Origin: an uncultured Actinomycetota bacterium
GTDB lineage: Bacteria; Actinomycetota; Actinomycetes; JAHEKZ01
Assembly: GCA_963829525.1 (NCBI GenBank)
Contig: CAWHIJ010000003.1
Span: 2,587,211 to 2,651,210 of the forward strand
DNA: 64,000 nucleotides
Reading direction: 5' to 3'
Below, piece by piece: positions 571-32,053 of this stretch (its first letter is position 1; each line of letters opens with the position of its first letter). The notes beneath the pieces are model-generated. The model was not told the origin of the DNA. It was given only the letters and a program-made list of their open reading frames with translations, and did not search any database. Both the position numbers and the translations under genes were made by a program.

Positions 571-3168
571 TCAGCGCGCCGCTAACGGCGCGGGGAGCAC
601 CCCTCCAGTGCGGATGGCCCTTTCGGACCTTTCTTTTGGGACCTGACCGTAGGTCGTGGTCCGCTGCCGCGCCGGGCGTCCGACATCGGCAGCCCAGGCA
701 ACCAGTTCGGACACCGCTGTGGCCGAGCCGTGAGAGCTCCCGGCCATCCGGCTGATGGTCTCCTCCATGAGCGTCCCGCCGAGGTCGTCGACTCCGGCAC
801 CGAGCATGGTCTGGACACCGGTCGCGCCGAGCTTGACCCACGAGACCTGAATGTGGTCGATCCGACCGTGCAGCAGCAGCCGGGCCACCGCATGCACGGC
901 CCTCGTCTCCGCAGCGGTCGGGCCCGCGCGGCCGATCCCGGCGAGGTAGAGCGGCGCTGACTGGTGGACGAACGGCAGCGGCACGAACTCGGTGAAGCCA
1001 CCGACCCCCCTCGTCTTGGCCTTGTCCTGCACAGCCGCGAGCACCCGGAGATGCGTGAGCCAGTGGTCGGGACGATCGACGTGGCCGTACATCATCGTGC
1101 TGCTGGTGGGCAGCCCCAGCCGGTGCGCGGACTCGACCACCTCGACCCAGGTCGCGGTCGGCAGCTTGCCCTTGGTCAGCACCCAGCGCACGTCGTCGTC
1201 GAGGATCTCCGCGGCGGTGCCGGGAAGTGACCCAAGACCGGCCTCCTGCAGCGCCGCCAAGAACTCCGGGATCGACGTCCCGGCATGAGCTGCCCCCGTT
1301 GCCACCTCCATCGGGCTGAACGCGTGGACGTGCATCTCCGGGAGCGCTGCCTTGATGGCGCGGACCAGGTCGAAGTAGTGCGACGCCGGGATCTGCGGGT
1401 CGATGCCGCCCTGCATGCAGACCTCGGTGGCGCCGAGCTCCCAAGCCTCCTCTGCCCGCGTCGCGACTTCGTCGATGGAGAGCGAGTACGCGTCGGCATC
1501 GGAGCGACGCTGGGCGAAAGCGCAGAACCGGCAGCCGGTGTAGCAGACGTTGGTGAAGTTGATGTTGCGGTTGACGACGTAGGTGACCTCGTCGCCGACC
1601 ACGTCGCGACGCAGGTCGTCGGCGATAGCAGCCACGGCGTCGAGGTCGGCATCCTCGGCCGCCAGGATCGCCAGCGCTAGTCGTTCGTTCTCGGGATGGA
1701 GCAGCGCGGCCGGATCAGTCTCGGCAACGCGGAGCGCGTCCCGGACGTCGGCGGCCATCCGGCTCGCGGCCGGGGAGCTCGCGGCCGGGGAGCTCGCGGC
1801 CACCGCATCCCACGAACCGAAGGCGTCGTCGAAGTCGCTGCGCACCGCCTGACCTGCGCCCTTCGATGTCGATGCTGGCGTGCAGGTCGACGCGCCCCAA
1901 GTCATCCAGTCGATCCGGCTCCTGCCAGGGCAGCCCGCTCGGCCGAACCCCTTCTCGGGCGAGGCCGCCGTCGTCGGCGAGCGCGTCGACGTGCGGCTGC
2001 ACACGGGGGTCGAGCCAAGGCTCACCGCGCTGCGCGTAGGAAGGATGGACGGTGAGCCGCTCGCGCAGCACGAACCCCGGCCTCGCCGTCTGGTGAGCCA
2101 GGACCTGCAGGTGCGGCCAGGGCCGCTCCGGGTTGACGTGGTCGGGAGTCAGCGGGCTGACCCCTCCCCAGTCGTCGACCCCGGCAGCGAGCAGCCTCGG
2201 CAGCACATCGAGGTCGGAGAGGTTGGGCGGCACCTGGACCCGCATGGACGGGCCGAGCACCACCCGCGCGACCGCGACCGTCGCGAGGTAGTCGTCGGCT
2301 CCCGCATCAGCGGCGCTGGCCATCGCGGTGCCGGGCTTGGCCCGGAAGTTCTGGACGATGACCTCCTGCACGTGGCCATGGCGCGATGAGCCGACCGCAT
2401 GGCGAGCAGCGACTCAGCGCGCTCGACGAGCGTCTCGCCGATCCCGACCAGCACCCCGGTGGTGAACGGGACCGACAGCCGGCCGGCGTCCTCGAGCACC
2501 CTGAGCCGCACCGCAGGCTCCTTGTCGGGCGACCCGTGGTGCGGCGCCCCGGGCTCAGACCACAGCCGGTTGCTGGTCGTCTCGAGCATCAGACCCATCG
2601 ACGGCGCGACCGGCTTGAGGCGAAGGAGCTCGTCCCACGTCATGACGCCAGGGTTCAGGTGCGGCAGCAGCCCGGTCTCCTCGAGCACCAGAACCGCCAT
2701 CGCGCGGACGTAGTCCAGGGTGGTGTCGTAGCCGGCTTCGTCGAGCCAGGCACGTGCCTGGGGCCAGCGCTCCTCCGGGCGGTCGCCCAGGGTGAACAGC
2801 GCCTCCTTGCACTCGTCAGCGGCCCCGCTGCGCGCGATCGCCAGCACCTCGTCGGGCGACAGGTACGGCGCAGGCAGCTCCCTGGGGGCAGCGGCGAACG
2901 TGCAGTAGTGGCACCGGTCTCGGCAGAGCCGGGTCAGTGGGATGAAGACCTTGCGCGAGTACGTGATGACTCCGGGGCGTCCAGCATCTGCGAGCCCGCG
3001 GTCGCGCAGATTCGACGCCACGCGCATCAGGGCATCGAGCTCGGAACCTCGGGCTGCCATGAGCGCGGCAGCCTCCTGCGCATCAAGCTCCTTGCCCTGT
3101 TCGGCTCGACGGAGCGCCCGGCCGGTCTCTGTCGCAGTCGGCCAATGTTCGGACTTTGGGGGAGGCAT
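571..3168 (-). CDS. fbiC: FbiC (FO synthase, CofG+CofH fusion; radical SAM) with the reading frame interrupted twice; pseudogene or indel errors
   Basis: The CofG domain (CxxxCxYC; [15 protein letters not shown] motif) lies in frames 2149..3168 and 1715..2371. The CofH domain ([24 protein letters not shown]) lies in 571..2025. Frame switches fall near ~2378 and ~1845, and the net shift is zero. Confidence 0.8.
1763..1802. repeat. 15-bp tandem repeat (gctcgcggccgggga, ~2.7 copies) encoding AASSP repeats in the FbiC inter-domain linker
   Basis: Direct inspection: copies at 1763-1777 and 1778-1792, with a partial third copy. Confidence 0.8.
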
Positions 3169-3285
3169 CTGCCGAGAGTACGTCAGCGTTCGGTAAGGAC
3201 CTCGTCATCGCTTTGCCCTCGGATCACCGGCCGCCCCTGCCTAGCGTCGGGGTGCCCACTTGAAATCCTCGTTCTAAGGAATCCC

Positions 3286-3702
3286 ATGAACATGTCCCAG
3301 ATCGCGGCCGCAGCTGCCGCGATGGTTCTGACCGCTGCCCCACTGGCGGTCGCGTTGCCTGCCCAGGCAGACAGCAGCAACCCCCAAGGTGCCAACTTCG
3401 GAAAGCTCTACTACGACGGGTCCGTTGTCCGAACCGTTGCCACCCCGACGAGCCAGCCTGGACAAGGCGTTGACGCGATCTACCCAGTCACCGACGGAGT
3501 CCCCGGGCAGCTGGCCGTGACCTCGGCCGCACCCGGCGACAACTACCACGGTGGCCGCTGGGCCGTGAACGTCGTCAGCTGGAACACGTCGCCTTACCTA
3601 CTGACCTCTGATGAGGCAGTACTGGAGGCAGCCGAGGCCGGCCACGTGACTATCACCCGGATGCCAGTCGCAGACTTCGTCTGCCCGGTCGCCGGTCGCT
3701 GA
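3286..3702 (+). CDS. Small secreted protein of unknown function (138 aa, signal peptide)
   Basis: Begins MNMSQIAAAAAAMVLTAAPLAVALPAQA, which has the form of a signal peptide. AAGGA ribosome-binding site 8 nt upstream. The larger listed ORF 2386..3702 is antisense to fbiC in its upstream part. Confidence 0.6.
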   Translation: MNMSQIAAAAAAMVLTAAPLAVALPAQADSSNPQGANFGKLYYDGSVVRTVATPTSQPGQGVDAIYPVTDGVPGQLAVTSAAPGDNYHGGRWAVNVVSWNTSPYLLTSDEAVLEAAEAGHVTITRMPVADFVCPVAGR

Positions 3703-4510: not shown

Positions 4511-5523
4511 AGCCCTGGGCTGCGGTCGCCGTCACGGCCATCGCCAGCAGCGCCGTCGTCGGCGCGATCGGGCTCCTCCTCCTGCACCTGCTGGGACGCC
4601 GGTCGGCTCGTACACTCGCATGGCTGGCGCCGGTCACCGCGGTGCTCGCCGTGGTGGTGGGGGTAGTGGCCACCGCGCGGCGGATGTTCCTTTCCTCACA
4701 CGATCTGGGCGTCGTGCTCGTGGTGTGTGGCGCGGCCGGGGTGGTGGCGGTGGGCATCGGGCTCCTCCTGGCACGGCGAGTCGACCAGATCGAGCAGCAC
4801 GCTCGCGAACTTGCTGAGGAGCAGGCGCGGGCGGAGGAGGCCGAGCGGACCCGACGTGAGCTTGTTGCGTGGGTGTCGCATGACCTGCGCACTCCGTTGG
4901 CTGGTATGCGGGCCATGACCGAGGCCCTCGAGGATGGCCTGGCGCCGGACCCCGAGCGCTACCATCGACAGCTGCGTACCGAGGTAGAACGACTCACCAA
5001 CATGGTCGACGACCTGTTCGAGCTGTCGCGCATCAACGCCGGAGCTCTACGCCTGGTGCCCGAACAGATCTCACTCAGCGACGTCGTTGGCGATGTCATC
5101 GCCGCCGCCGCTCCGCTCGCAGTTGCTCGAGGCGTCTCCATCGAGGCGGTGGCGTCGCCGCAGAGTCCCGACACGATCACCGCCGACGAGCGCGAGCTAC
5201 GTCGGGCGATAGCCAACCTGGTCTCCAACGCCGTCCGTCACACCCCCCACGACAGCAAGGTGCACGTGGCTGCGTCTGTTATCGGCGGAACGGCGTCGGT
5301 CACGGTGACCGACGCTTGCGGGGGAATCCCCGACGCCGACCTCGCGCGGGTCTTCGAAGCCGGCTATCGAGGTGACCAGGCCCGCACACCGGATCCGGAC
5401 GGTGGTGCCGGGCTCGGGCTGGCGATCGTTCAGGGAATCGTCAACGCACATGGCGGCGAAGTCGACGTACGGAACGTCAGCGGTGGGTGCCGCTTCACGG
5501 TGCGGATCGCGGCGTCCAGCTGA
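4507..5523 (+). CDS. Sensor histidine kinase, intramembrane-sensing type (two TM helices, very short extracellular loop)
   Basis: H-box [10 protein letters not shown] and HATPase_c N/G boxes ([20 protein letters not shown]). The GTG start overlaps the regulator stop as GTGA. Confidence 0.85.
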
Positions 5524-6358: not shown

Positions 6359-7336
6359 ATCGTCGCATTGGCAGGGGGCATCGGCGGGGCTCGCTTTCTG
6401 CGGGGCCTCCGTCAACATCTGGCGGTCCGCGACGACGAGTTGGCGGGCGCCGACATCACCGTGATCGGCAACACCGCCGACGACATCACCTTGTTCGGCC
6501 TGCGGGTCTGCCCCGACCTCGACACCGTGATGTACACCCTGGGCGGGGGCATCCACGAGGAGCAGGGGTGGGGGCGGGCCGAAGAAACGTTCTCCGTCAG
6601 TGCAGAGCTGGCGGCGTACGAGGTGCCGCCCGACTGGTTCACCCTCGGCGACCGCGACATCGCCACCCACATCGTGCGCACGCAGATGCTGCGCGCCGGC
6701 TGGTCGCTGACCGATGTCACGGCCGCCCTGTGTTCGCGTTGGCAGCCCGGGGTGCGGCTGCTTCCGATGAGTGACGATCCCGTCGAGACGCATGTCGTCG
6801 TTCTCGACGACAGCGGAACACGTGAGGCTCTGCACTTCCAGGAGTGGTGGGTACGTGAGCAGGCCAAGCGCCCCGCCCAGGAGTTCGTCTACCTCGGTGC
6901 GGCTGAAGCGAAGCCAACTGTTGCGGTGCTCGACGCACTCCGCGACGCCGACGTGGTGCTGCTACCACCGTCGAATCCCGTCGTCAGCATCGGCGCGATC
7001 CTGCAGGTCGACGGCATCGCCGATGCGCTGCGGGGCGTGGCGGCATCTGTTGTCGGAGTCTCGCCGATCATCGCGGGAGCGCCGGTTCGAGGGATGGCCG
7101 ACGCATGCCTGTCCGCCATCGGCGTCGAGACCTCGTCAGCGGCGGTGGCCGCTCACTACGGCGCGCGCATCGCAGGTGGGCTGCTAGACGGTTGGCTCGT
7201 CGCCGACGAAGATGCGTCGGCGCCCGCCCCGGCTGGAGTCGTCCAACGGTCCCGGCCGCTTCTGATGACCGCGATTGAGGACGCTGCGGCGATTGCTGGT
7301 GCTGCGCTCGACCTCGCCATCGACTTACGTCGTTGA
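6353..7336 (+). CDS. fbiA: 2-phospho-L-lactate transferase (CofD/FbiA), F420 biosynthesis
   Basis: N-terminal [19 protein letters not shown] plus the CofD motifs IGNTADD and DTVMYTLGG. Confidence 0.9.
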   Translation: MHIVALAGGIGGARFLRGLRQHLAVRDDELAGADITVIGNTADDITLFGLRVCPDLDTVMYTLGGGIHEEQGWGRAEETFSVSAELAAYEVPPDWFTLGDRDIATHIVRTQMLRAGWSLTDVTAALCSRWQPGVRLLPMSDDPVETHVVVLDDSGTREALHFQEWWVREQAKRPAQEFVYLGAAEAKPTVAVLDALRDADVVLLPPSNPVVSIGAILQVDGIADALRGVAASVVGVSPIIAGAPVRGMADACLSAIGVETSSAAVAAHYGARIAGGLLDGWLVADEDASAPAPAGVVQRSRPLLMTAIEDAAAIAGAALDLAIDLRR

Positions 7337-8640
7337 GCCGCATGGCGTCGCTGGGTCACGGGGGTAGCTTCCACGTCGTCGCGCTCGAGCGGATGCCGGA
7401 GATCACCGCGGGCCACGACCTCGCGAGGTCCATCCTCTCGGCTCAACCAGGACTGCAGGACGGCGACATCGTGGTGGTGTCGAGCAAGGTGGTGAGCAAG
7501 GCAGAGGGACGCGTCGTCACTGGTGTCACGCGCGACGAGGTTATCTCCGGCGAAATCGTGCGAGTCGTCGCAGAGCGCGACGGTCTCACGATCGTCGAGA
7601 CGCGCCACGGCCTTGTGCTAGCAGCAGCTGGCGTCGACGCGAGCAACGTCGCAGAGGGGTCGTTGGTGCTGCTGCCCGAGGACGCTGACGCCTCTGCGCG
7701 GGCACTGCGCTCGGCGCTGCAAGTGGCGGCCGGTTGCACGCTGGGGGTCATCGTCACCGATACCGCGGGACGTCCGTGGCGGCTCGGCCAGACCGACATC
7801 GCGATCGGCGCAGCCGGCGTCACCCCGCTGCAGGATCTCCGCGGCACGTCAGACATGCAAGGCCGGATGCTGGAGGTCACAGTGCCAGCCGTCGCCGATG
7901 AGATCGCCGCTGCTGCCGAGCTCGTGATGGGCAAGGCAGCGGGAACTCCGGTCGCAGTCGTCCGGGGGCTCGGTCAGTTCGTGCAGGAGTCCGACGGTCC
8001 AGGCGCGCGAGCCATTGTTCGACCGCGCGACGAGGACCTGTTCTCGCATGGCTCGCGCGATGTGGTGCGTTCGCGGCGAACCGTACGCGCCTTCACCGAT
8101 GCTCCAGTGCCGCGTGATGTCATCACCGCTGCTGTTGCTGATGCCATCACCGCGCCGGCCCCGCACCACTCAGCGCCCTGGCGGTTCGTCCTCGTATCCG
8201 ACGACCGCCGAACAGGACTGCTCGACGCCATGGCTGACCAGTGGCGGGATGACCTGCGCGTAGATGGAGTCGATGAGGCGTCCATCGAGGGCCGCATCGC
8301 CAGGGGCGATCTCCTGCGAGCGGCACCGTCGCTTGTGGTCCCGTGTCTCGTCGACGATGGCTCGGCGGTGTATGCCGATGACCGGCGCTCCACCGCCGAG
8401 CATGTGATGTTCCTGCTCGCCATGGGCGCGGGGATCGAGAACTTTCTCGTGTCGTTGGCGGTTCAAGGTGTGGGGTCGGCATGGGTCTCGTCAACGATCT
8501 TCTGTCCTGACGTCGCGTGCGCTGCGCTCGACCTTCCTGCCGGCTGGCAACCCATGGGTGCGATTGCCGTGGGGTATGCGGCAGGGGCGCCGACCCCTCG
8601 CGCGCCACGTGATCCTGGCGACTTCGTCGTGGAGAGATAG
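7333..8640 (+). CDS. fbiB: F420-0:gamma-glutamyl ligase (CofE) fused to a C-terminal nitroreductase-like domain (FbiB)
   Basis: N-terminal CofE domain and C-terminal NADH-oxidase/nitroreductase fold. ATGA overlap with the fbiA stop. Same two-domain architecture as mycobacterial FbiB. Confidence 0.9.
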   Translation: MSRMASLGHGGSFHVVALERMPEITAGHDLARSILSAQPGLQDGDIVVVSSKVVSKAEGRVVTGVTRDEVISGEIVRVVAERDGLTIVETRHGLVLAAAGVDASNVAEGSLVLLPEDADASARALRSALQVAAGCTLGVIVTDTAGRPWRLGQTDIAIGAAGVTPLQDLRGTSDMQGRMLEVTVPAVADEIAAAAELVMGKAAGTPVAVVRGLGQFVQESDGPGARAIVRPRDEDLFSHGSRDVVRSRRTVRAFTDAPVPRDVITAAVADAITAPAPHHSAPWRFVLVSDDRRTGLLDAMADQWRDDLRVDGVDEASIEGRIARGDLLRAAPSLVVPCLVDDGSAVYADDRRSTAEHVMFLLAMGAGIENFLVSLAVQGVGSAWVSSTIFCPDVACAALDLPAGWQPMGAIAVGYAAGAPTPRAPRDPGDFVVER

Positions 8641-24519: not shown

Positions 24520-25335
24520 ATGGGGCGGCCGAGCAGAGGAGAACGTGGCACCGCACCTCGGCATCGGAGCAGATCACCGGCCTGGAGCAGCAGCCTAGTG
24601 GCGTCGAAGCGGCTCTCTCGCTTCATACCGCCTGAGCACGGCGCCTGGGCCATGCTGATCGTGCCGTTCGCGCTTGGCACCTTCTCGGCAACACCCTCGT
24701 GGCCGTCCCTACTACTTCTCGTTGCTTGGCTAGCGGCATACCTCACCAGCTACTTTGCACTCCGGTGGTGGAAGACCCGCAAACTTTCACATCGCGGTGT
24801 GCGATTTCGGGCACCAACCGTGCTTTATGCCAGTCTGTTGGCTGTCTCAGGAGCCATCTTGCTGGTCCTCGAACCGTGGCTCGTCTTCGCTGGGATGGTC
24901 TTCCTGCCGTTCGAGTCCACGGCCGTAGCCTTGGCGATACGCGGCAAGGAGCGCTCGCTGTCAGCGGGGTTTGCCTCGGCGACCGCGGCCTGCCTGATGG
25001 CGCCAGTGGCCTACCGCCTGGCCGACGGGGACGACCAGACCCTGGCGCTCACCCTCTTCGTCGTGTCATGGCTGGCATTCACCGGCTCGGTCCTGCACGT
25101 CAAGTCGACGATTCGCGAGCGCGACGACCCGAGGTACCGAACTGCTTCGATAGCGTTCCACGCTCTGGCACTGATCGCAGCTATCTGGATCGAGCCACTC
25201 CTCGTGATTCCCTTCGGGTTCCTGCTCGTGCGCGCCGTGGTCGTTCCCCGCCATGGCTGGCGCCCCGCGCAGATCGGCGCCGTGGAGATCGCCGGCTCAC
25301 TGTTGGTTCTCGCGGTACCGCTCGTTGCTTCGTGA
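24520..25335 (+). CDS. Integral membrane protein (multi-TM, unknown function)
   Basis: About 6-7 hydrophobic helices. Start uncertain (GTG near 24595 is possible). Confidence 0.55.
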   Translation: MGRPSRGERGTAPRHRSRSPAWSSSLVASKRLSRFIPPEHGAWAMLIVPFALGTFSATPSWPSLLLLVAWLAAYLTSYFALRWWKTRKLSHRGVRFRAPTVLYASLLAVSGAILLVLEPWLVFAGMVFLPFESTAVALAIRGKERSLSAGFASATAACLMAPVAYRLADGDDQTLALTLFVVSWLAFTGSVLHVKSTIRERDDPRYRTASIAFHALALIAAIWIEPLLVIPFGFLLVRAVVVPRHGWRPAQIGAVEIAGSLLVLAVPLVAS

Positions 25336-25350
25336 CGGCGCTCAGCGAGA

Positions 25351-25896
25351 TCAGGCGGAGAAGCCAACCTCGCCCGACCGACGTCTACGGAGCGCCTCAC
25401 CCTTGCCCGACGACTCCTCGGCCATGTGCTGCTGGAATGCCACCATCTTGGCGCGAAGCTCAGCGTCGGTCACGCCGAGGATCCGTACGGCGAGCAGTCC
25501 GGCATTGCGTGCGTTTCCGATGGCAACGGTGGCGACGGGAACCCCCGTTGGCATCTGCACGATCGACAGCAGCGAGTCGATGCCGTCCAGTCGGGGGAGC
25601 GGAACGGGAACACCGATCACCGGGAGAGGCGTTGCCGCCGCCAGCATGCCCGGGAGGTGCGCTGCGCCTCCGGCTCCGGCAATGATCACCTGGCACCCAC
25701 GGCCGGCCGCCGAACGACCGAACTCGAGCATGTCGAAGGGTGTGCGGTGCGCTGAGACGACATCAACCTCGTAACCGACTCCGAACTCGTCGAGTACGTC
25801 GGCAGCGGCCTCCATCACCGGCCAGTCAGAGTCACTGCCCATCACAAGGCTGACAGGCGGGCTCACTGCGGGGCTAGTACTACTCATCGATGTCAC
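25351..25896 (-). CDS. purE: N5-carboxyaminoimidazole ribonucleotide mutase
   Basis: GSDSDWPVM...[10 protein letters not shown] motifs. Confidence 0.9.
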
Positions 25897-27082
25897 CTCT
25901 CAGGTACGCCACGGCATGCCGAGTGCGTTCGAGCAAATCGGTCAGGTCGTCTGGGCTGCTTCCTGTTGCCGTGACATGCCCCACCTTGCGGCCCGGCTTG
26001 ACGACCTTGCCGTACATGTGGAACTTAAGGGCCGGATCACGGGCCATGCAGTGCAAGAACGCGGGGTACAGGTCGCTCAGGTCTCCACCCAGCAGGTTCA
26101 CCATCACGGTCAGCGGTGCTGACGCGGAGGGGTCGCCAAGCGGCAGATCGAGCACCGCGCGCAGGTGGTTCTCGAACTGGCTGGTCACAGCACCATCGAT
26201 GCCCCAGTGTCCGGAGTTGTGCGGCCGCATGGCCAGCTCGTTGACGAGCACTCCCTGGGGGGTGTCGAACAGCTCAACTGCCATGACTCCGACAACACCG
26301 AGCTCACCGGCGATCCGCAAGGCAGCCTCCTGGGCGGCCACCGCATGAGCCTCCTCCAGTCCAGGCGCCGGGGCGTACACCTCGTGGCAGATGCCGCCGC
26401 GCTGCACGGTCTCAACGACGGGATAGGCCACCGCCTGACCACTCGGGCTCCTGGCCACCATCGCCGAAAGTTCCCGGGTGTAAGGCACCAGCTCTTCAGC
26501 GATGAATCCCGGTACCTGATCGTGTGAGAGCACTTCGGCGGCTTCATGCTCGTTGTTGACCATCCAGACGCCCTTGCCGTCATACCCACCACGAGTCGCC
26601 TTGAGGACGAGCGGGAAGGACGTGAGCTCGGCAAAGGAGCGGACATCTGCGGCCGAGGCCACCCGGCACCAGAGGGGAAGCGGTGACCGCATCTGGGCCA
26701 ACCGCTCCCGCATCAGGCCCTTGTCCTGGGCAAAGACCAGTGCCTCTGGACCGGGTCGCACGGGCACACCGTCGGCAGCCAGAGCATGCAGATGATCGGT
26801 TGGAACATGCTCGTGGTCGAAGGTGACGACCTCGCAGCCACGAGCGAAACGGCGCAACGTGTCAAGATCCCGGTAGTCACCGATCACCGTGTCAGGAATC
26901 ACCTGGGCCGCGCTGTCCGATGGCGAGTCGGCCAGCAGGCGAAGCCGCACGCCAAGCCCGACGGCTGGCTGCTGCATCATCCGGGCGAGCTGACCACCTC
27001 CCACAACGCCAACCACGGGGAAATCGGCGGGGCCCATCTCAGCCGTCTCGGCTGACGAGGCTGCGGGCGTTCGGTCACTCAC
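25880..27082 (-). CDS. purK: N5-carboxyaminoimidazole ribonucleotide synthase
   Basis: ATP-grasp fold with [14 protein letters not shown] at the N-terminus. GTG start overlaps the nadC 3' end. Confidence 0.9.
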
Positions 27083-28004
27083 CTGATGACCCTACCGATG
27101 GGTTCACGACACGCAGCACGTCGAGGCCGAGGTCGAGTACCGGCGCGGAGTGCGTCAACGCCCCAACCGCTACGAAGTCGACTCCGGTAGCGGCAACTGC
27201 AGACGCTCTGTCGAGCGTCAACCCTCCGGAGGCCTCGAACTGAACGAGCCGCCCGGACGAGCGTCCAAGCGCGACGCAGTGGCGCATCTGATCGATGGTC
27301 ATGTTGTCGAGAAGGATCAGTTCGGCGCCGGCCGCGATGGCCGCGCCGACCTGCGCGGCACTGTCACACTCCACCTCGAGCAGAACCGACGGCGCGCGCG
27401 CTCGCACCGCGGCGACGGCAGCGCCGACGCCACCCGCTGCTGCAACGTGATTGTCCTTGATGAGGGCAGCATCGCCTAGCCCCATGCGGTGGTTGAGGCC
27501 GCCGCCACACCGGACCGCGTACTTTTCGAGCACCCGCAGGCCAGGGGTGGTCTTTCGGGTGTCACGGACGCGGGCCGGTGCCACCTGGGCCGCCCACGCC
27601 GCGGTGACCGTCGCCACCCCGGAGAGATGACCGAGGAAGTTCAGAGCGGTTCGCTCGGCGGTCAGCAGACCTCGCGTTGGTGCTTCGAGCCTCAAGGCGT
27701 TGTCACCGGGACTCAGCACCGTGCCGTCGTCCTGGTGGTCGAGGAGGCCCCACTGTCCGGCCCCCATGACGAGGTCGAAGGTCACGAGCACCACCGGCAA
27801 CCCGGCGAGGACTCCCATCTTGCGGGCGGCCACGGCAGCCACCACGCGCTGGTCGGCAGGAACCGTTGCTGTCGTTGTGACGTCAGGACCATAGGCGAGG
27901 TCTTCTTCCAACGCGATCTTCACCTGAGAAACCACATGGCTCACCTGCAGCCCGGCACTCTCGACCATCGAGACCGAATCCGGACTCAGCTCTTCGTACC
28001 TCAC
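27075..28004 (-). CDS. nadC: Nicotinate-nucleotide pyrophosphorylase (quinolinate phosphoribosyltransferase)
   Basis: QPRTase fold. GTGA start/stop overlap with nadB. Confidence 0.9.
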   Translation of the reverse strand: MRYEELSPDSVSMVESAGLQVSHVVSQVKIALEEDLAYGPDVTTTATVPADQRVVAAVAARKMGVLAGLPVVLVTFDLVMGAGQWGLLDHQDDGTVLSPGDNALRLEAPTRGLLTAERTALNFLGHLSGVATVTAAWAAQVAPARVRDTRKTTPGLRVLEKYAVRCGGGLNHRMGLGDAALIKDNHVAAAGGVGAAVAAVRARAPSVLLEVECDSAAQVGAAIAAGAELILLDNMTIDQMRHCVALGRSSGRLVQFEASGGLTLDRASAVAATGVDFVAVGALTHSAPVLDLGLDVLRVVNPSVGSSGE

Positions 28005-29677
28005 GATCGTTCACCGCCTGCGGGCTCGTACCCCACGGCTTCATACGTGGTCGTGACGGTTGACCCATCCCAACGCTGCACGATGCGCTTGCGCCACTCC
28101 TCACGTGGCTCGGCGAAGTCGAGCCTGCGATGGCTGCCCCGACTTTCCTCGCGCTGCTGCGCCGCGTGCACGATCAGCTCGGAGACAGCGAGGAGGTTGG
28201 TGGCCTCAATCTGAGCGAGGGATGTGATGGAGGACGACGGGCTCGGCGTGCGCAGGTGATCGGACGCTGCCTGCAGACCGTCTCCGTCGCGCAATGGGCC
28301 AGCCCATCTGCTCATGGCAAGCGCGACGTCGCTGCGGACACTGGCGTCCACCACCGCAAGCCAAACTTCCCCGAGCACCGGAGGCCCGCTCTCGGGCACC
28401 TGCTGGGCAAGAGCACCAGCGACCATATGGCCGGCCACCAAGCCCTCGGTCACGCCGTTGGAGGCTAGACGGTTGGCCCCATGCACGCCTGTGGCGGCTA
28501 CCTCACCGACGGCGAAGAGGCCCGGTACAGATGTGACGCCGTCCAGTCGAGCCCGAACACCGCCGCAGGCAAAGTGCGCAGCTGGCGCGACCGGGATCGG
28601 CTCGCTGACCGGGTCAATTCCGGCCTCCCGGCAGCGCGCCACGATCGTCGGAAAACGTTCGGCCATCGCCGGACCGATCGACGTGGCATCGAGGAATACA
28701 TGGTCGCCGATTCCCCCGGGAGCCTCTCGGAGACGCAGCGCAATGGCGGTGGCAACGACGTCACGCGGTGCGAGGTCTCCGAGTGGGTGCACTCCATTCA
28801 TCACCGAGCGACCGGCGCCGTCTACCAAAGTCGCCCCTTCGCCGCGCACGGCCTCGGACACCAACAGCTGTTGCCCACTGGACCGCGGCTGCCAGAAGGC
28901 CGTCGGATGGAACTGCACAAACTCCACGTCGGCCACCGCCGCGCCAGCCCGCCAGGCCAGAGCAAGCCCGTCACCTGTCGACTGCGCGGGGTTGGTGGTT
29001 ACTGCATAGGCCTGGCCCAGCCCCCCGGTCGCGACAACGACGGCCGACGTGCGAATCAAAGTGATGCCTTCGATCCCACCTGCGTCATCGACGTGCGCGA
29101 CCAGCACGCCCGCAACACGCCCCCGATCGTCGTGGAGCACGTCAAGGGCAATGCTCCGCTCCGTCACCACCACGCCTGCGGCCCGCATCGAGCTATCCAA
29201 GGTGCGTTGCACCTCGGCACCGGTGGCATCGCCTCCCGCGTGCACGATCCGGCTGCGGCGGTGGCCGCCTTCCCGAGCGAGTGCGAGGCGGCCACCGAGG
29301 TCGCGGTCGAACTCTGCACCGAGGTCGATCAGGGTTTGGACGGCCTCCGGCGCCTGCCGTACCAACTGCTCAACGACCGCGCGATCCGAAAGGCCGGCTC
29401 CTGCAGTCAGAGTGTCGGCAATGTGCTCATCCCATGAGTCATCGGTGGCATCGAGCACAGCAGCCAGTCCACCCTGGGCCCACGTGGTCGAACCCGCACC
29501 AAGGCCAGACTTGGTAACCACCAGCACATCACGCCCCGCGCGGGCGGCGCCCAGGGCAGCAGTGGCGCCAGCTGCGCCGGAGCCGATCACCACCACCTCA
29601 GCGCTCGACTCGAGGGTGGGGCTGGCCGGCAGGCGGGGCAGGGGCCTCCACGCCGACGGCGCCTGCTGATGGGTCAC
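28001..29677 (-). CDS. nadB: L-aspartate oxidase
   Basis: FAD-binding [10 protein letters not shown] and a succinate-dehydrogenase/fumarate-reductase flavoprotein fold. Start placed at the GTG at 29677, which forms a GTGA overlap with the nadA stop. The longer listed ORF runs into nadA. Confidence 0.85.
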
Positions 29678-30684
29678 GCGGGAACCGGGGCGCCGCCGAG
29701 CTCGACCATTCGTTCGACAGCGCGTCGGGCACGCACAGCGACGTCCGGGGCGATGGTGACCTCGTACACGTTCTCGCGCAGTGTTCGCAGCAACTTCTCC
29801 GGGGTAATCATCTTCATGTAGCGACACTCGGCCTTCGGATTCACCGCAAGGAAGTTAGCCAAGGGATTGGCCTTGCGCAGCTGGTGCAGCATCCCAGTCT
29901 CGGTCGCCACCAGCACGGTTTCCGAACCCAGCTGCTTGGCCTTGGTGAGCATGCCCCCGGTCGACAGGATGTGGGTGCGATCCGCCGGTACTACGCCCTC
30001 ACCGGCCAGGTAGAGCGCCGACGTTGCGCACCCGCACTCGGGGTGGATCAACAACTCAGCACCAGGATGCTCTTCGATGCCTCGCGCAAGGTTGTCGCCG
30101 CTGATCGCTGCATGGACGTGGCACTCACCCATCCAGATCCGCAGGTTGGTACGCCCTGTCTCGCGCTGCACGTGGGCACCGAGGAACTGATCAGGCAAGA
30201 ACAGAATCTCGCGATCGGCCGGGATCGAGTTGACGACGTCGACAGCATTCGACGACGTGCAGCAGATGTCAGTCTCAGCCTTCACCGCGGCCGACGTGTT
30301 GACGTATGACACGACAACGGCACCGGGGTGTTCGGCCTTCCACTCACGAAGCTGCTCGGCAGTGATGGTGTCGGCAAGTGAACAACCAGCATTGACATCG
30401 GGGATGAGCACAGTCCGGTCCGGCGCGAGCAGCTTGGCCGACTCTGCCATGAAGTGGACGCCACACAGCACGATCGTCGACGCGGTGCTCGCCGCAGCGA
30501 GGCGCGCCAACTGCAATGAGTCGCCCACATGGTGGGCAACCTCTTGGATCTCCGGCACCTGGTAGTTGTGGGCCAGGATGAGCGCGTCCCGCTCGGAGGC
30601 AAGGCGGCGCACCTCCTCGGCGTAAGCCGGGTCGACAGCTGGCGTGCCAGCCACGCCGCACCTCCGTCGCGTAGGGACCCCCAT
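29674..30684 (-). CDS. nadA: Quinolinate synthase
   Basis: NadA family with conserved cysteines and the HNYQ motif. Confidence 0.9.
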
Positions 30685-30712
30685 GGGGCCCTGGTACCGT
30701 GAGACTGCCCGA

Positions 30713-30737
30713 GGTTATTGACTATTAGTCCATAACC
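30713..30737. promoter_or_regulatory. 25-bp near-perfect palindrome GGTTATtGACTA-T-TAGTCcATAACC; candidate NrtR operator
   Basis: Direct inspection: 12-bp arms with a single mismatch, centred in the 92-nt nadA/nrtR divergent intergenic region. Confidence 0.45.
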
Positions 30738-30776
30738 CGTACACCTCACGCTACCACGCCTCCCGGAGGTCCGGCA

Positions 30777-31523
30777 TTGTCGCCCAGCCCTCACCGCTCG
30801 GCCGCCAAGACCGCGCCAGCAGCAACGACAGCCCCGGCCGTCGACCACGAGGTCCTCGCCGTCGTTCTGCAGGTGGCCGACGCTGCTCTGCACGTCCTGC
30901 TCTGGCAGCACGATCGCGGACCGGCCGCCGGGTCGTGGGCCCTTCCTGGCGGCCCGCTGATGGTCGACGAGACCCTGGGTCAGTCCGTCGCCAGACAACT
31001 GGCCCAGAAGGTCGATGTCCGGCATCTGGCGCACCTGGAACAGCTGGAGACCCGCAGCGATCTCGATCGGGACCCACGCGATCGAGTATTGGCGACGGCC
31101 TACCTCGGGCTGGTGCCAGCCGACGAGCGGTCGATCCTGCCAGCCGATACCCGCTGGCACGAGGTCAACGCGCTCCCTGTCATGGCGTTCGACCACGCCT
31201 CGATCACCTCCAGTGGTGTACGCCGGCTTCGAGCCAAGCTCAGCTACACCAACCTTGGCTTCGCGCTGGCTCCTGCCGTCTTCACCGCCTCCGAGCTGCA
31301 GACGGTGTACCAGGCAGCGCTGGGACACGAGGTCTCAGCTACCAACCTCAAACGCATCCTTCTGCGTCGTGAGCAGATCGCGGCAACCGGAGAACGCACC
31401 TCACCCGGTCGCTCGGGGGGACGTCCGGCCGCCGAGTACCGATTCCGAACCCGTCACATCGAGGTGACAGACCAGTTCGCTGTGCTTCGTCCTCCCGAGC
31501 CACCGCGTACCCTCTCGGGGTAA
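30777..31523 (+). CDS. nrtR: NrtR-family regulator (degenerate Nudix domain plus C-terminal winged-helix), predicted NAD-biosynthesis repressor
   Basis: The Nudix box lacks the catalytic REx2EE glutamates. The C-terminal region matches the NrtR DNA-binding domain. Divergent from nadABC. Confidence 0.8.
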   Translation: MSPSPHRSAAKTAPAATTAPAVDHEVLAVVLQVADAALHVLLWQHDRGPAAGSWALPGGPLMVDETLGQSVARQLAQKVDVRHLAHLEQLETRSDLDRDPRDRVLATAYLGLVPADERSILPADTRWHEVNALPVMAFDHASITSSGVRRLRAKLSYTNLGFALAPAVFTASELQTVYQAALGHEVSATNLKRILLRREQIAATGERTSPGRSGGRPAAEYRFRTRHIEVTDQFAVLRPPEPPRTLSG

Positions 31524-32053
31524 TGACGACGCCAGCGGCCGGGGACGGCAACGCCAATCGAGGGCTTGCGCAGCGACTGCGGCGCGGGACGGGAGAGCTT
31601 TCGCGATTCGGTGTCGTCGGTATCGGCGCCTTCGTCATCGACGTCGGACTCTTCAACCTCCTGGTGCACGTCGGCGACCCTGGCCTCCTGGCCGATAAGC
31701 CACTGACCGCGAAAACGATCGCGGCGGTGGTCGCGACGGTCTTCGCGTACCAGGTCAACCGAGAGTGGACGTGGAAGGACAGAGGCCGCCGAGGTTTCTG
31801 GCGCGAGTACTCGCTCTATTTCCTGTTCAATGCGATCGGGCTCGTCATCACCTTGCTGCCGCTCGCTGTGTCGCGCTACCTCCTCAATCTCGACTCAGCC
31901 ATCTCGGACAACATCTCCGCCAACGTGATCGGCGTCGGCCTCGGGACGCTCTTCCGCTTCTGGTCGTACCGCCGCTGGGTCTTCCCTGCCATTGAGGAAG
32001 AACCGAAAGTGCGCGGGCCGACGGCTCACCAAGGCGAGCCTGCCACCGACTGA
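31523..32053 (+). CDS. GtrA-family membrane protein (polysaccharide-synthesis/flippase-associated)
   Basis: GtrA signature with four TM segments and RFWSYRRWVF at the C-terminus. Confidence 0.75.
   Translation: MTTPAAGDGNANRGLAQRLRRGTGELSRFGVVGIGAFVIDVGLFNLLVHVGDPGLLADKPLTAKTIAAVVATVFAYQVNREWTWKDRGRRGFWREYSLYFLFNAIGLVITLLPLAVSRYLLNLDSAISDNISANVIGVGLGTLFRFWSYRRWVFPAIEEEPKVRGPTAHQGEPATD

Follow-up and report, generated by a model that had tools for sequence, protein, structure and literature searches.

An nrtR-nadABC module followed by purK and purE in an uncultured actinobacterial clade: a probable single insertion, with a putative leaderless purK promoter nested in the nadC tail

In Actinobacteria, the gene of the Nudix-related transcriptional repressor NrtR has been reported to lie divergently upstream of nadA-nadB-nadC, which direct the synthesis of nicotinamide adenine dinucleotide (NAD), an arrangement known as Actinobacteria-1b and listed for Mycobacterium and Nocardia (Rodionov et al. 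2008, PMC2330246). For the Mycobacterium smegmatis protein (MsNrtR, MSMEG_3198; Rv1593c in M. tuberculosis), with the Nudix box GX5EX7RQUXEKXDU, it was found experimentally that the enzyme has no hydrolase activity on adenosine diphosphate ribose (ADP-ribose), yet ADP-ribose releases the protein from DNA; deletion of nrtR shifts nadABC expression 2- to 6-fold only (PMC6800001). The stretch of DNA analysed here, a window of 64,000 nucleotides (nt) from contig CAWHIJ010000003.1 of assembly GCA_963829525.1, in whose positions all coordinates are given, holds a module of this kind, which resembles the mycobacterial one in its divergent layout and overlapping nadABC junctions (PMC6800001, PMC2330246). 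Unlike the mycobacterial module, it has the purine synthesis genes purK and purE directly after nadC, and a gtrA-like gene after nrtR. The reading that we favour, with a probability of about 0.6, is that nadABC would be controlled by NrtR, with transcription reading through into purKE, and that purKE would also have an ancestral leaderless promoter of their own, nested in the end of nadC.

The purine part of the locus also has a described counterpart. On the basis of position and length we presume that MSMEG_1819 of M. smegmatis is purK; a literature search on this gene found no paper. Its mapped transcription start falls on the first base of the start codon, as does that of the divergent neighbour MSMEG_1817, and MSMEG_1819-1820 have been called an operon (Martini et al., PMC6448022 supplement). 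If the gene identities are as presumed, MSMEG_1817<>MSMEG_1819-1820 would represent the ancestral-type gtrA-like<>purK-purE arrangement, being like the window in the purK-purE pair and in the divergent membrane-protein neighbour, and the starts on both start codons match the TANNNT-N6-GTG geometry kept at purK and gtrA in the window. It differs in that no nad module stands between the two, and in that the presumed purK has a second start 283 nt upstream. A gene overlap with a promoter internal to the upstream gene is reportedly also known for recA-recX of M. tuberculosis, from a study by Forse and colleagues in 2011; the genes are different, and the likeness to the arrangement proposed here lies in a downstream overlapping gene fed by a promoter inside the upstream coding sequence.

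The distribution of the nadABC-purKE adjacency was surveyed with PurK in one genome per species, which gave 70 loci (L001-L070) annotated by tblastn, and in a complementary metagenome scan with NadC as query. The order gtrA<-nrtR<- ->nadA-nadB-nadC-purK-purE was found in 11 of the 11 genome loci whose PurK is at least 76% identical, all of them from metagenome-assembled genomes (MAGs) of uncultured Actinomycetes, one labelled Candidatus Nanopelagicales. The next locus, L009 (PurK 72%), has purK-purE without nad genes, and in the approximately 58 loci farther away the 8 kb around purK-purE contain no nad gene; for M. tuberculosis, the initial annotation had stated that the two gene sets lie far apart. 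Four metagenome contigs, with NadC identities of 63% or more, fall in the same clade; purK follows nadC by tblastn in three of them, and the fourth (L073) ends 463 nt past nadC, the purK start included. In dozens of contigs with NadC at most 61% identical and at least 1.5 kb of downstream sequence no purK was found after nadC, and most of those with sufficient upstream sequence carry nrtR<>nadABC. The clade thus counts 16 sequences (the window, 11 species-level genomes and 4 metagenome contigs) with the same order and tight junctions, and since order and junctions recur in 15 related loci, with PurK identities of 71% or more, the arrangement is not the chance product of one genome. No independent recurrence was seen among the approximately 70 purK and 76 nadC loci outside the clade. 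This is consistent with a single origin of the adjacency, through the insertion of an nrtR<>nadABC module into the divergent promoter region between gtrA and purK.

The evidence for a separate purK promoter comes from the sequence immediately before the purK start. The motif TCGGTAGGGTC-N5-GTG, which contains the hexamer TAGGGT preceded by CGG, is found at the purK start throughout the clade (motif in 16/16 members). Among the 15 sequences anchored on the start, T-12, A-11, G-10 and T-7 never vary; in L074, the sixteenth, a 7-nt spacer follows the same box. The spacer between box and start (catcag in the window) varies among relatives and offers no GGAGG or other Shine-Dalgarno sequence. By way of background, TANNNT stands at -12 to -7 before 0.25% of the ATG and GTG triplets of the window; in M. 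tuberculosis, TANNNT has been reported 7-12 base pairs upstream of 73% of transcription starts, often with CGN before it (PMC3898074). The nadC/purK junction itself is variable in the clade, where the 8-nt overlap is replaced by a 4-nt overlap in L007, a 10-nt spacer in L074, in which nadC stops at the TAG of the motif, and a 43-nt non-coding spacer in L008, and in all three the box is retained at its distance from the start. Where the box is read as part of nadC, its TA is placed on the third position of the codons gtA, ctA or atA, which are rare in such a GC-rich genome, and this suggests that it is the nucleotides and not the protein that are constrained. A synonymous-site scan of all five genes, corrected for amino-acid-specific codon bias, found excess constraint at the gene junctions only. 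A raw peak at NadC codons 229-243 shrank to 1.2-1.25 times expectation after this correction and is therefore not taken as a promoter.

Similar motifs precede purK in outgroups that lack the nad insertion: CGATATCCT-N6-GTG in Streptacidiphilus, CGATAGCCT-N6-GTG in Nocardioides, TAGGGT-N7-GTG in a Nocardioidaceae MAG and CGCTAGGCT-N9-ATG in Actinoplanes, with only CGN-TA-NNN-T common to them. Because of the invariant CGN-TANNNT at -12 to -7, the lack of a Shine-Dalgarno sequence, the persistence of the box in the spacer variants and its occurrence in outgroups, purKE probably possess an NrtR-independent leaderless promoter nested in the nadC tail. It could be argued instead that TCGGTAGGGTC is a reinitiation signal, the trace of a coding constraint on the NadC tail, or the site of a purine regulator. 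The motif does lie within coding sequence in most members, the AGG or GGG inside it could pair weakly with the anti-Shine-Dalgarno sequence, and spacer positions -6, -4 and -3 are fairly conserved too. However, the invariant positions are the T, A and T of TANNNT and not the purines, and the clade variants TAGAGT, TAGGAT and TAGGCT leave TANNNT intact but would weaken any Shine-Dalgarno sequence; moreover the motif is intergenic in L008, and what the outgroups share fits a -10 box and not a specific regulator site. A function other than that of a promoter is consequently judged improbable.

The initial annotation had read the five genes as one translationally coupled operon, with the NrtR-controlled nadA promoter as its sole promoter, so that NrtR would gate the formation of N5-carboxyaminoimidazole ribonucleotide (N5-CAIR) together with NAD synthesis. 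Its description of the layout is largely borne out. Five consecutive open reading frames (ORFs) on the minus strand (25351..30684) encode nadA, nadB, nadC, purK and purE from 5' to 3', contiguous and with overlapping stop and start codons at all four junctions, which leaves no room for a terminator. GTGA is shared by the nadA stop and nadB start (29677..29674) and again by the nadB stop and nadC start (28004..28001), and the nadC TGA (27077..27075) and purK GTG (27082..27080) give the 8-nt overlap; the 4-nt overlap of nadA and nadB is kept in L001, L010, L003, L053, L004, L061 and L008. The figure of 17 nt that had been proposed for purK and purE depends on a purE start at GTG 25896. With the purK stop at TAG 25882..25880, a start at ATG 25887 gives 8 nt (ATGAGTAG) and is more likely, because this ATG and a GAGAGG Shine-Dalgarno sequence 8 nt upstream of it are invariant in 11 relatives and the GTG is missing in L005 and L008. 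In the same way GTG 30654 is the more likely start of nadA, rather than the ATG 30684 of the longest ORF, because a conserved GGAGG precedes it by 6 nt and the interval between the two codons shows large indels among relatives. The longest nadB ORF reaches 150 nt into nadA (GTG 29827; span 28001..29827), and the start in the GTGA at 29677 is backed by relatives and by the NadB model alignment. In every relative, the GTG of purK has no competing in-frame start between it and an upstream stop.

Several observations speak for a single operon. Besides the overlaps, no obvious terminator was found between nadC and purK or after purE in a scan of the region with an intrinsic-terminator consensus (0 matches), and folding of the nadC/purK junction gave z = -0.25, with no sign of an unusual structure. 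All 15 related loci have kept the order, and the one NrtR box of the locus stands upstream of nadA. Lacking a Shine-Dalgarno sequence, purK would need termination-reinitiation on a long transcript, which an 8-nt overlap would permit. On the other side, the conserved -10-type box lies exactly at leaderless distance from the purK start, it is kept where the overlap has been lost (L074, and L008, whose spacer has no Shine-Dalgarno sequence either), the same type of motif occurs at purK in genomes without nad genes there, and the presumed purK of M. smegmatis has a leaderless transcription start. Purines are presumably needed at any NAD status, and strict gating would be expected to starve NAD-replete cells. 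A single operon with a single promoter is therefore regarded as unlikely, and the gating of purKE by NrtR is not supported; an internal promoter in front of purK, which the initial annotation had itself named as the finding that would speak against it, is what the comparative sequence points to.

The nested purK promoter that we favour must also be set against a number of contrary points. The recorded transcription starts of purK lie 157 nt upstream of the annotated start in Streptomyces coelicolor (SCO3060) and 219 nt upstream in M. tuberculosis (Rv3276c), according to published transcription-start tables, and leaderless transcription of purK is therefore not universal in the class. All promoters described here are inferred from sequence, and the sigma-70 part of the consensus scan gave 0 matches in the region, although it requires an Escherichia coli-like -35 and is thus uninformative for actinobacterial promoters. 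Part of the conservation of TCGGTAGGGTC could come from the residues S-[VLI]-G-S of the NadC tail. Finally, the 16 clade sequences are phylogenetically related and do not constitute 16 independent observations.

Both ends of the module carry marks of the proposed insertion. In the window, the last 13 residues of NadC form a C-terminal tail whose codons run across the purK -10 box and start codon; 52 of the 72 NadC proteins from outgroups terminate 0-4 residues beyond position 296, and clade members are 13 residues longer, which fits a frame that ran on through former promoter DNA. At the other end, the nrtR stop and the gtrA start (ATG 31523) overlap by 1 nt in the window (TAATG) and by 4 nt (GTGA) in L001, whose GTGATGA context is common to L003, L004, L010, L053 and L061. 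The tail of nrtR contains TACCCT (31508..31513), the clade has conserved the pattern CG-TACYCT-N6-GTG, and a Jiangellaceae outgroup has TACCCT-N6-GTG ahead of gtrA. A divergent gtrA-like gene stands beside purK in Streptacidiphilus, Jiangellaceae, Cryobacterium and other outgroup loci, and no gtrA match was obtained by tblastn in the purK loci of Actinoplanes, Nocardioides and Planktophila. On these comparisons gtrA would be the second of the two old neighbours between which the module was inserted. In the window itself (31500..31530) the GTG of the gtrA pattern has changed to GTA, and transcription starting there would leave a 3-nt leader before ATG 31523. In L009 an acyl-CoA dehydrogenase gene (6800..7963) is found between gtrA and purK, ending approximately 40 nt before purK, so that insertions seem to have landed repeatedly in the gtrA/purK spacer. 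In L008, the most divergent member of the clade, approximately 1.2 kb (2399..3639) separate gtrA from nrtR, and another gene may be inserted there.

Whether the two gene sets came together because their co-expression is useful has also to be considered. Both pathways use phosphoribosyl pyrophosphate (PRPP), and NadC gives off CO2, whereas bicarbonate or CO2 is fixed by PurK and PurE. The clade has kept the arrangement down to approximately 63% NadC identity. In Shewanella oneidensis the NrtR regulon reaches a gene shared with nucleotide synthesis, that of PRPP synthetase, in the prs-nadV operon (PMC2330246); there, the operator lies directly before prs, which is a dedicated second copy, whereas purKE in the window have no operator of their own. 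Against an adaptive origin stand the single event in one clade and the lack of recurrence outside it. The other side of the insertion fused nrtR likewise to an unrelated gtrA-like gene, which suggests an accident of position, and in the sister lineage L009 this slot is taken by an acyl-CoA dehydrogenase gene. The literature searched gave no link of NrtR or nadC with purK. An adaptive adjacency thus appears highly unlikely, and the regulatory design implied by the initial annotation is not supported. The novelty of the locus lies in its gene order and in two ancestral leaderless promoters that appear to be nested within the coding tails of the inserted genes; the nrtR<>nadABC part has already been described (PMC2330246, PMC6800001), and purKE form a regular class I pair.

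The regulator encoded beside nadA agrees with what had been annotated, a divergent nrtR whose Nudix box lacks the catalytic glutamates. Its product matches both Pfam domains of the family, NUDIX with 29.9 bits (gathering threshold 21.1) and NrtR_WHD with 41.6 bits (27), and aligns over both domains with AraR (5bs6, E=5e-24) and with S. oneidensis NrtR (3gz5, E=3e-17) in the Protein Data Bank. Since it scores 92.6 bits against a cut-off of 400 in the NCBIfam NtrR equivalog, it is a member of the family outside that equivalog. The Nudix box reads G-X5-E-X7-RQLAQKVDV, with all three glutamates of REUXEE replaced; it is of the mycobacterial type RQ-U-X-(E/Q)K-X-D, and the protein has the same combination of a Nudix domain with a winged helix. 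The near identity of this box to that of the M. smegmatis protein suggests, by homology, DNA binding that is relieved by ADP-ribose without hydrolase activity; the sensor-only function put forward in the initial annotation matches what is known of the family, because M. smegmatis NrtR is hydrolase-inactive and released by ADP-ribose (PMC6800001). The gene starts with TTG, upstream of which lies GGAGG at 30765..30769, both conserved in relatives, and in having such a Shine-Dalgarno leader it differs from the leaderless Rv1593c (Cortes 2013 supplement).

The spacer between nrtR and nadA contains a putative NrtR operator, a 12+12 inverted repeat with 92% complementarity, whose pattern has a single match in the 64 kb (0 expected by chance) and is conserved in L001, L003, L004, L010 and L061. 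For the family, a palindromic operator of about 21-23 bp is expected in the promoter region of the target. On the nadA strand the core of the palindrome reads GTTATGGA-N7-TCAATAAC, an 8-N7-8 layout like that of the mycobacterial operator GTTTTCGA-N7-TCGAAAAC (PMC6800001), with 6 of 8 bases per half-site shared and 2 of 8 different; the family core GT-N7-AC (PMC2330246) has no literal match in it. No second NrtR box was found near purK or elsewhere in the 64 kb with up to 3 mismatches, nor outside the nrtR/nadA spacer in genome loci L001-L070 with up to 5 mismatches. On either side of the operator a conserved block could serve as an extended -10, TGGTAGCGT for nadA and TGGTACCGT for nrtR, the latter within CACGGTAsCAGGG and the mirror image of the former. 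Transcription of nadA would then begin at approximately 30740-30742, placing the operator at about +5 to +29, and the two promoters would stand face to face with both transcripts crossing the operator. Mapped nadA and nrtR transcription starts and promoters overlap in a similar manner in M. tuberculosis (Cortes 2013 supplement), so that the mycobacterial spacer would be alike in its overlapping divergent promoters as well. The spacer as a whole (30655..30775) forms a large imperfect palindrome in which GGAGG, an extended -10-like block, the NrtR box, a second extended -10-like block and GGAGG follow each other (inverted repeats I1-I4), and this suggests mirror-symmetric control of nrtR and nadA.

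A sequence of events can be proposed from these data. In the ancestor of the clade a standard nrtR<>nadA-nadB-nadC module would have been inserted in the short divergent promoter region between gtrA and purK, after which the nadC and nrtR frames ran through the old purK and gtrA core promoters and start codons, and it is this run-on that would have produced the 8-nt and 1-4-nt overlaps resembling translational coupling. A catalytically dead NrtR would bind the operator GTTAT(G/T)GA-N7-TC(A/C)ATAAC, just downstream of the two face-to-face extended -10 promoters, and repress nadABC and its own gene until released by ADP-ribose or an NAD-related ligand. Because no terminator intervenes, RNA polymerase from the nadA promoter almost certainly reads on into purKE, which would also be transcribed separately, as a leaderless messenger RNA (mRNA), from the ancestral promoter in the nadC tail. 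NrtR would then add at most a modest NAD-responsive increment to purKE, modulating and not gating their expression; any such modulation is probably small, to judge by the M. smegmatis nrtR deletion, which alters nadABC expression 2- to 6-fold. A stronger version, in which a constitutive leaderless purKE mRNA and NrtR-controlled read-through form nested units and low NAD or high ADP-ribose measurably raises N5-CAIR capacity and the GtrA-like protein, is possible but doubtful; if true, NAD homeostasis and purine synthesis would in this clade be tied by a regulatory connection that is real, though it came about by accident.

The consequence for NAD or purine physiology is probably small, and the locus makes a neat evolutionary case rather than a surprising regulatory principle. 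It would exemplify a regulated module that lands in a divergent promoter region and fuses with both neighbours, whose core promoters would survive inside the new coding tails. For high-GC Actinobacteria it also carries a caution, namely that overlapping stop and start codons are no proof of a translationally coupled operon with a single promoter, since the final codons of the preceding gene may conceal a leaderless promoter. In one clade MAG, L005, nadA (approximately 5175..5200) and nadB (approximately 6522..6553) each carry one frameshift, with nadC, purK and purE intact. Either de novo NAD synthesis is beginning to be lost in this lineage or the assembly is in error; should the frameshifts be genuine, purKE of L005 cannot rely on an intact nad operon.

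The coordinates of the genes and of the proposed control elements are collected in Table 1.

Table 1. Genes and putative control elements of the nrtR-nadABC-purKE locus (window positions; scores in bits with the curated cut-off of the model).
Feature	Position	Strand	Evidence or remark
nadA, quinolinate synthase	29674..30654	-	NCBIfam NF006878, 374 (cut-off 294)
nadB, L-aspartate oxidase	28001..29677	-	NF005867, 643 (cut-off 639)
nadC, quinolinate phosphoribosyltransferase	27075..28004	-	TIGR00078, 294 (cut-off 198), residues 28-295 matched
purK, N5-CAIR synthase	25880..27082	-	GTG start; NF004680, 564 (cut-off 327)
purE, class I N5-CAIR mutase	25351..25887	-	TIGR01162, 209 (cut-off 150)
nrtR, Nudix-related transcriptional repressor	30777..31523	+	TTG start; Pfam NUDIX and NrtR_WHD
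GtrA-like membrane protein gene	31508..32053	+	ATG 31523; Pfam GtrA_DPMS_TM
Putative NrtR operator, GGTTATTGACTA-T-TAGTCCATAACC	30713..30737	.	25-bp palindrome, core GTTATTGA-N7-TCCATAAC
Putative nadA promoter, extended -10 TGGTAGCGT	30748..30756	-	block conserved in intergenic alignment; arm of inverted repeat I1
Putative nrtR promoter, extended -10 TGGTACCGT	30692..30700	+	conserved block; other arm of I1
Putative purK promoter -10, TCGGTAGGGTC	27088..27098	-	TAGGGT 27094..27089, at -12..-7 from GTG; CGG before

The identities of the five minus-strand genes rest on NCBIfam equivalog models with curated cut-offs, and Pfam agrees. In the alignment of PurK with NF004680, model position 8 falls on residue 12. 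By profile scores, PurK, an ATP-grasp synthase, followed by the mutase PurE make up a class I N5-CAIR pair, rather than one with a class II or LarB-type enzyme; the PurE translation contains SAHRTP and GGAAHLPG, which we take to be marks of class I PurE. The alternative that PurE is a LarB-like NAD-related carboxylase was ruled out, since it scores 32 bits against a LarB cut-off of 175 and 209 bits with the PurE model. An Rfam search at permissive thresholds over 23-34 kb gave no riboswitch or leader RNA, its sole match being a chance small nucleolar RNA (E=0.64). At the far end of the locus, purE and a convergent YwiC-like gene (24520..25335, plus strand) end 15 nt apart (25335..25351), with no recognisable terminator for either.

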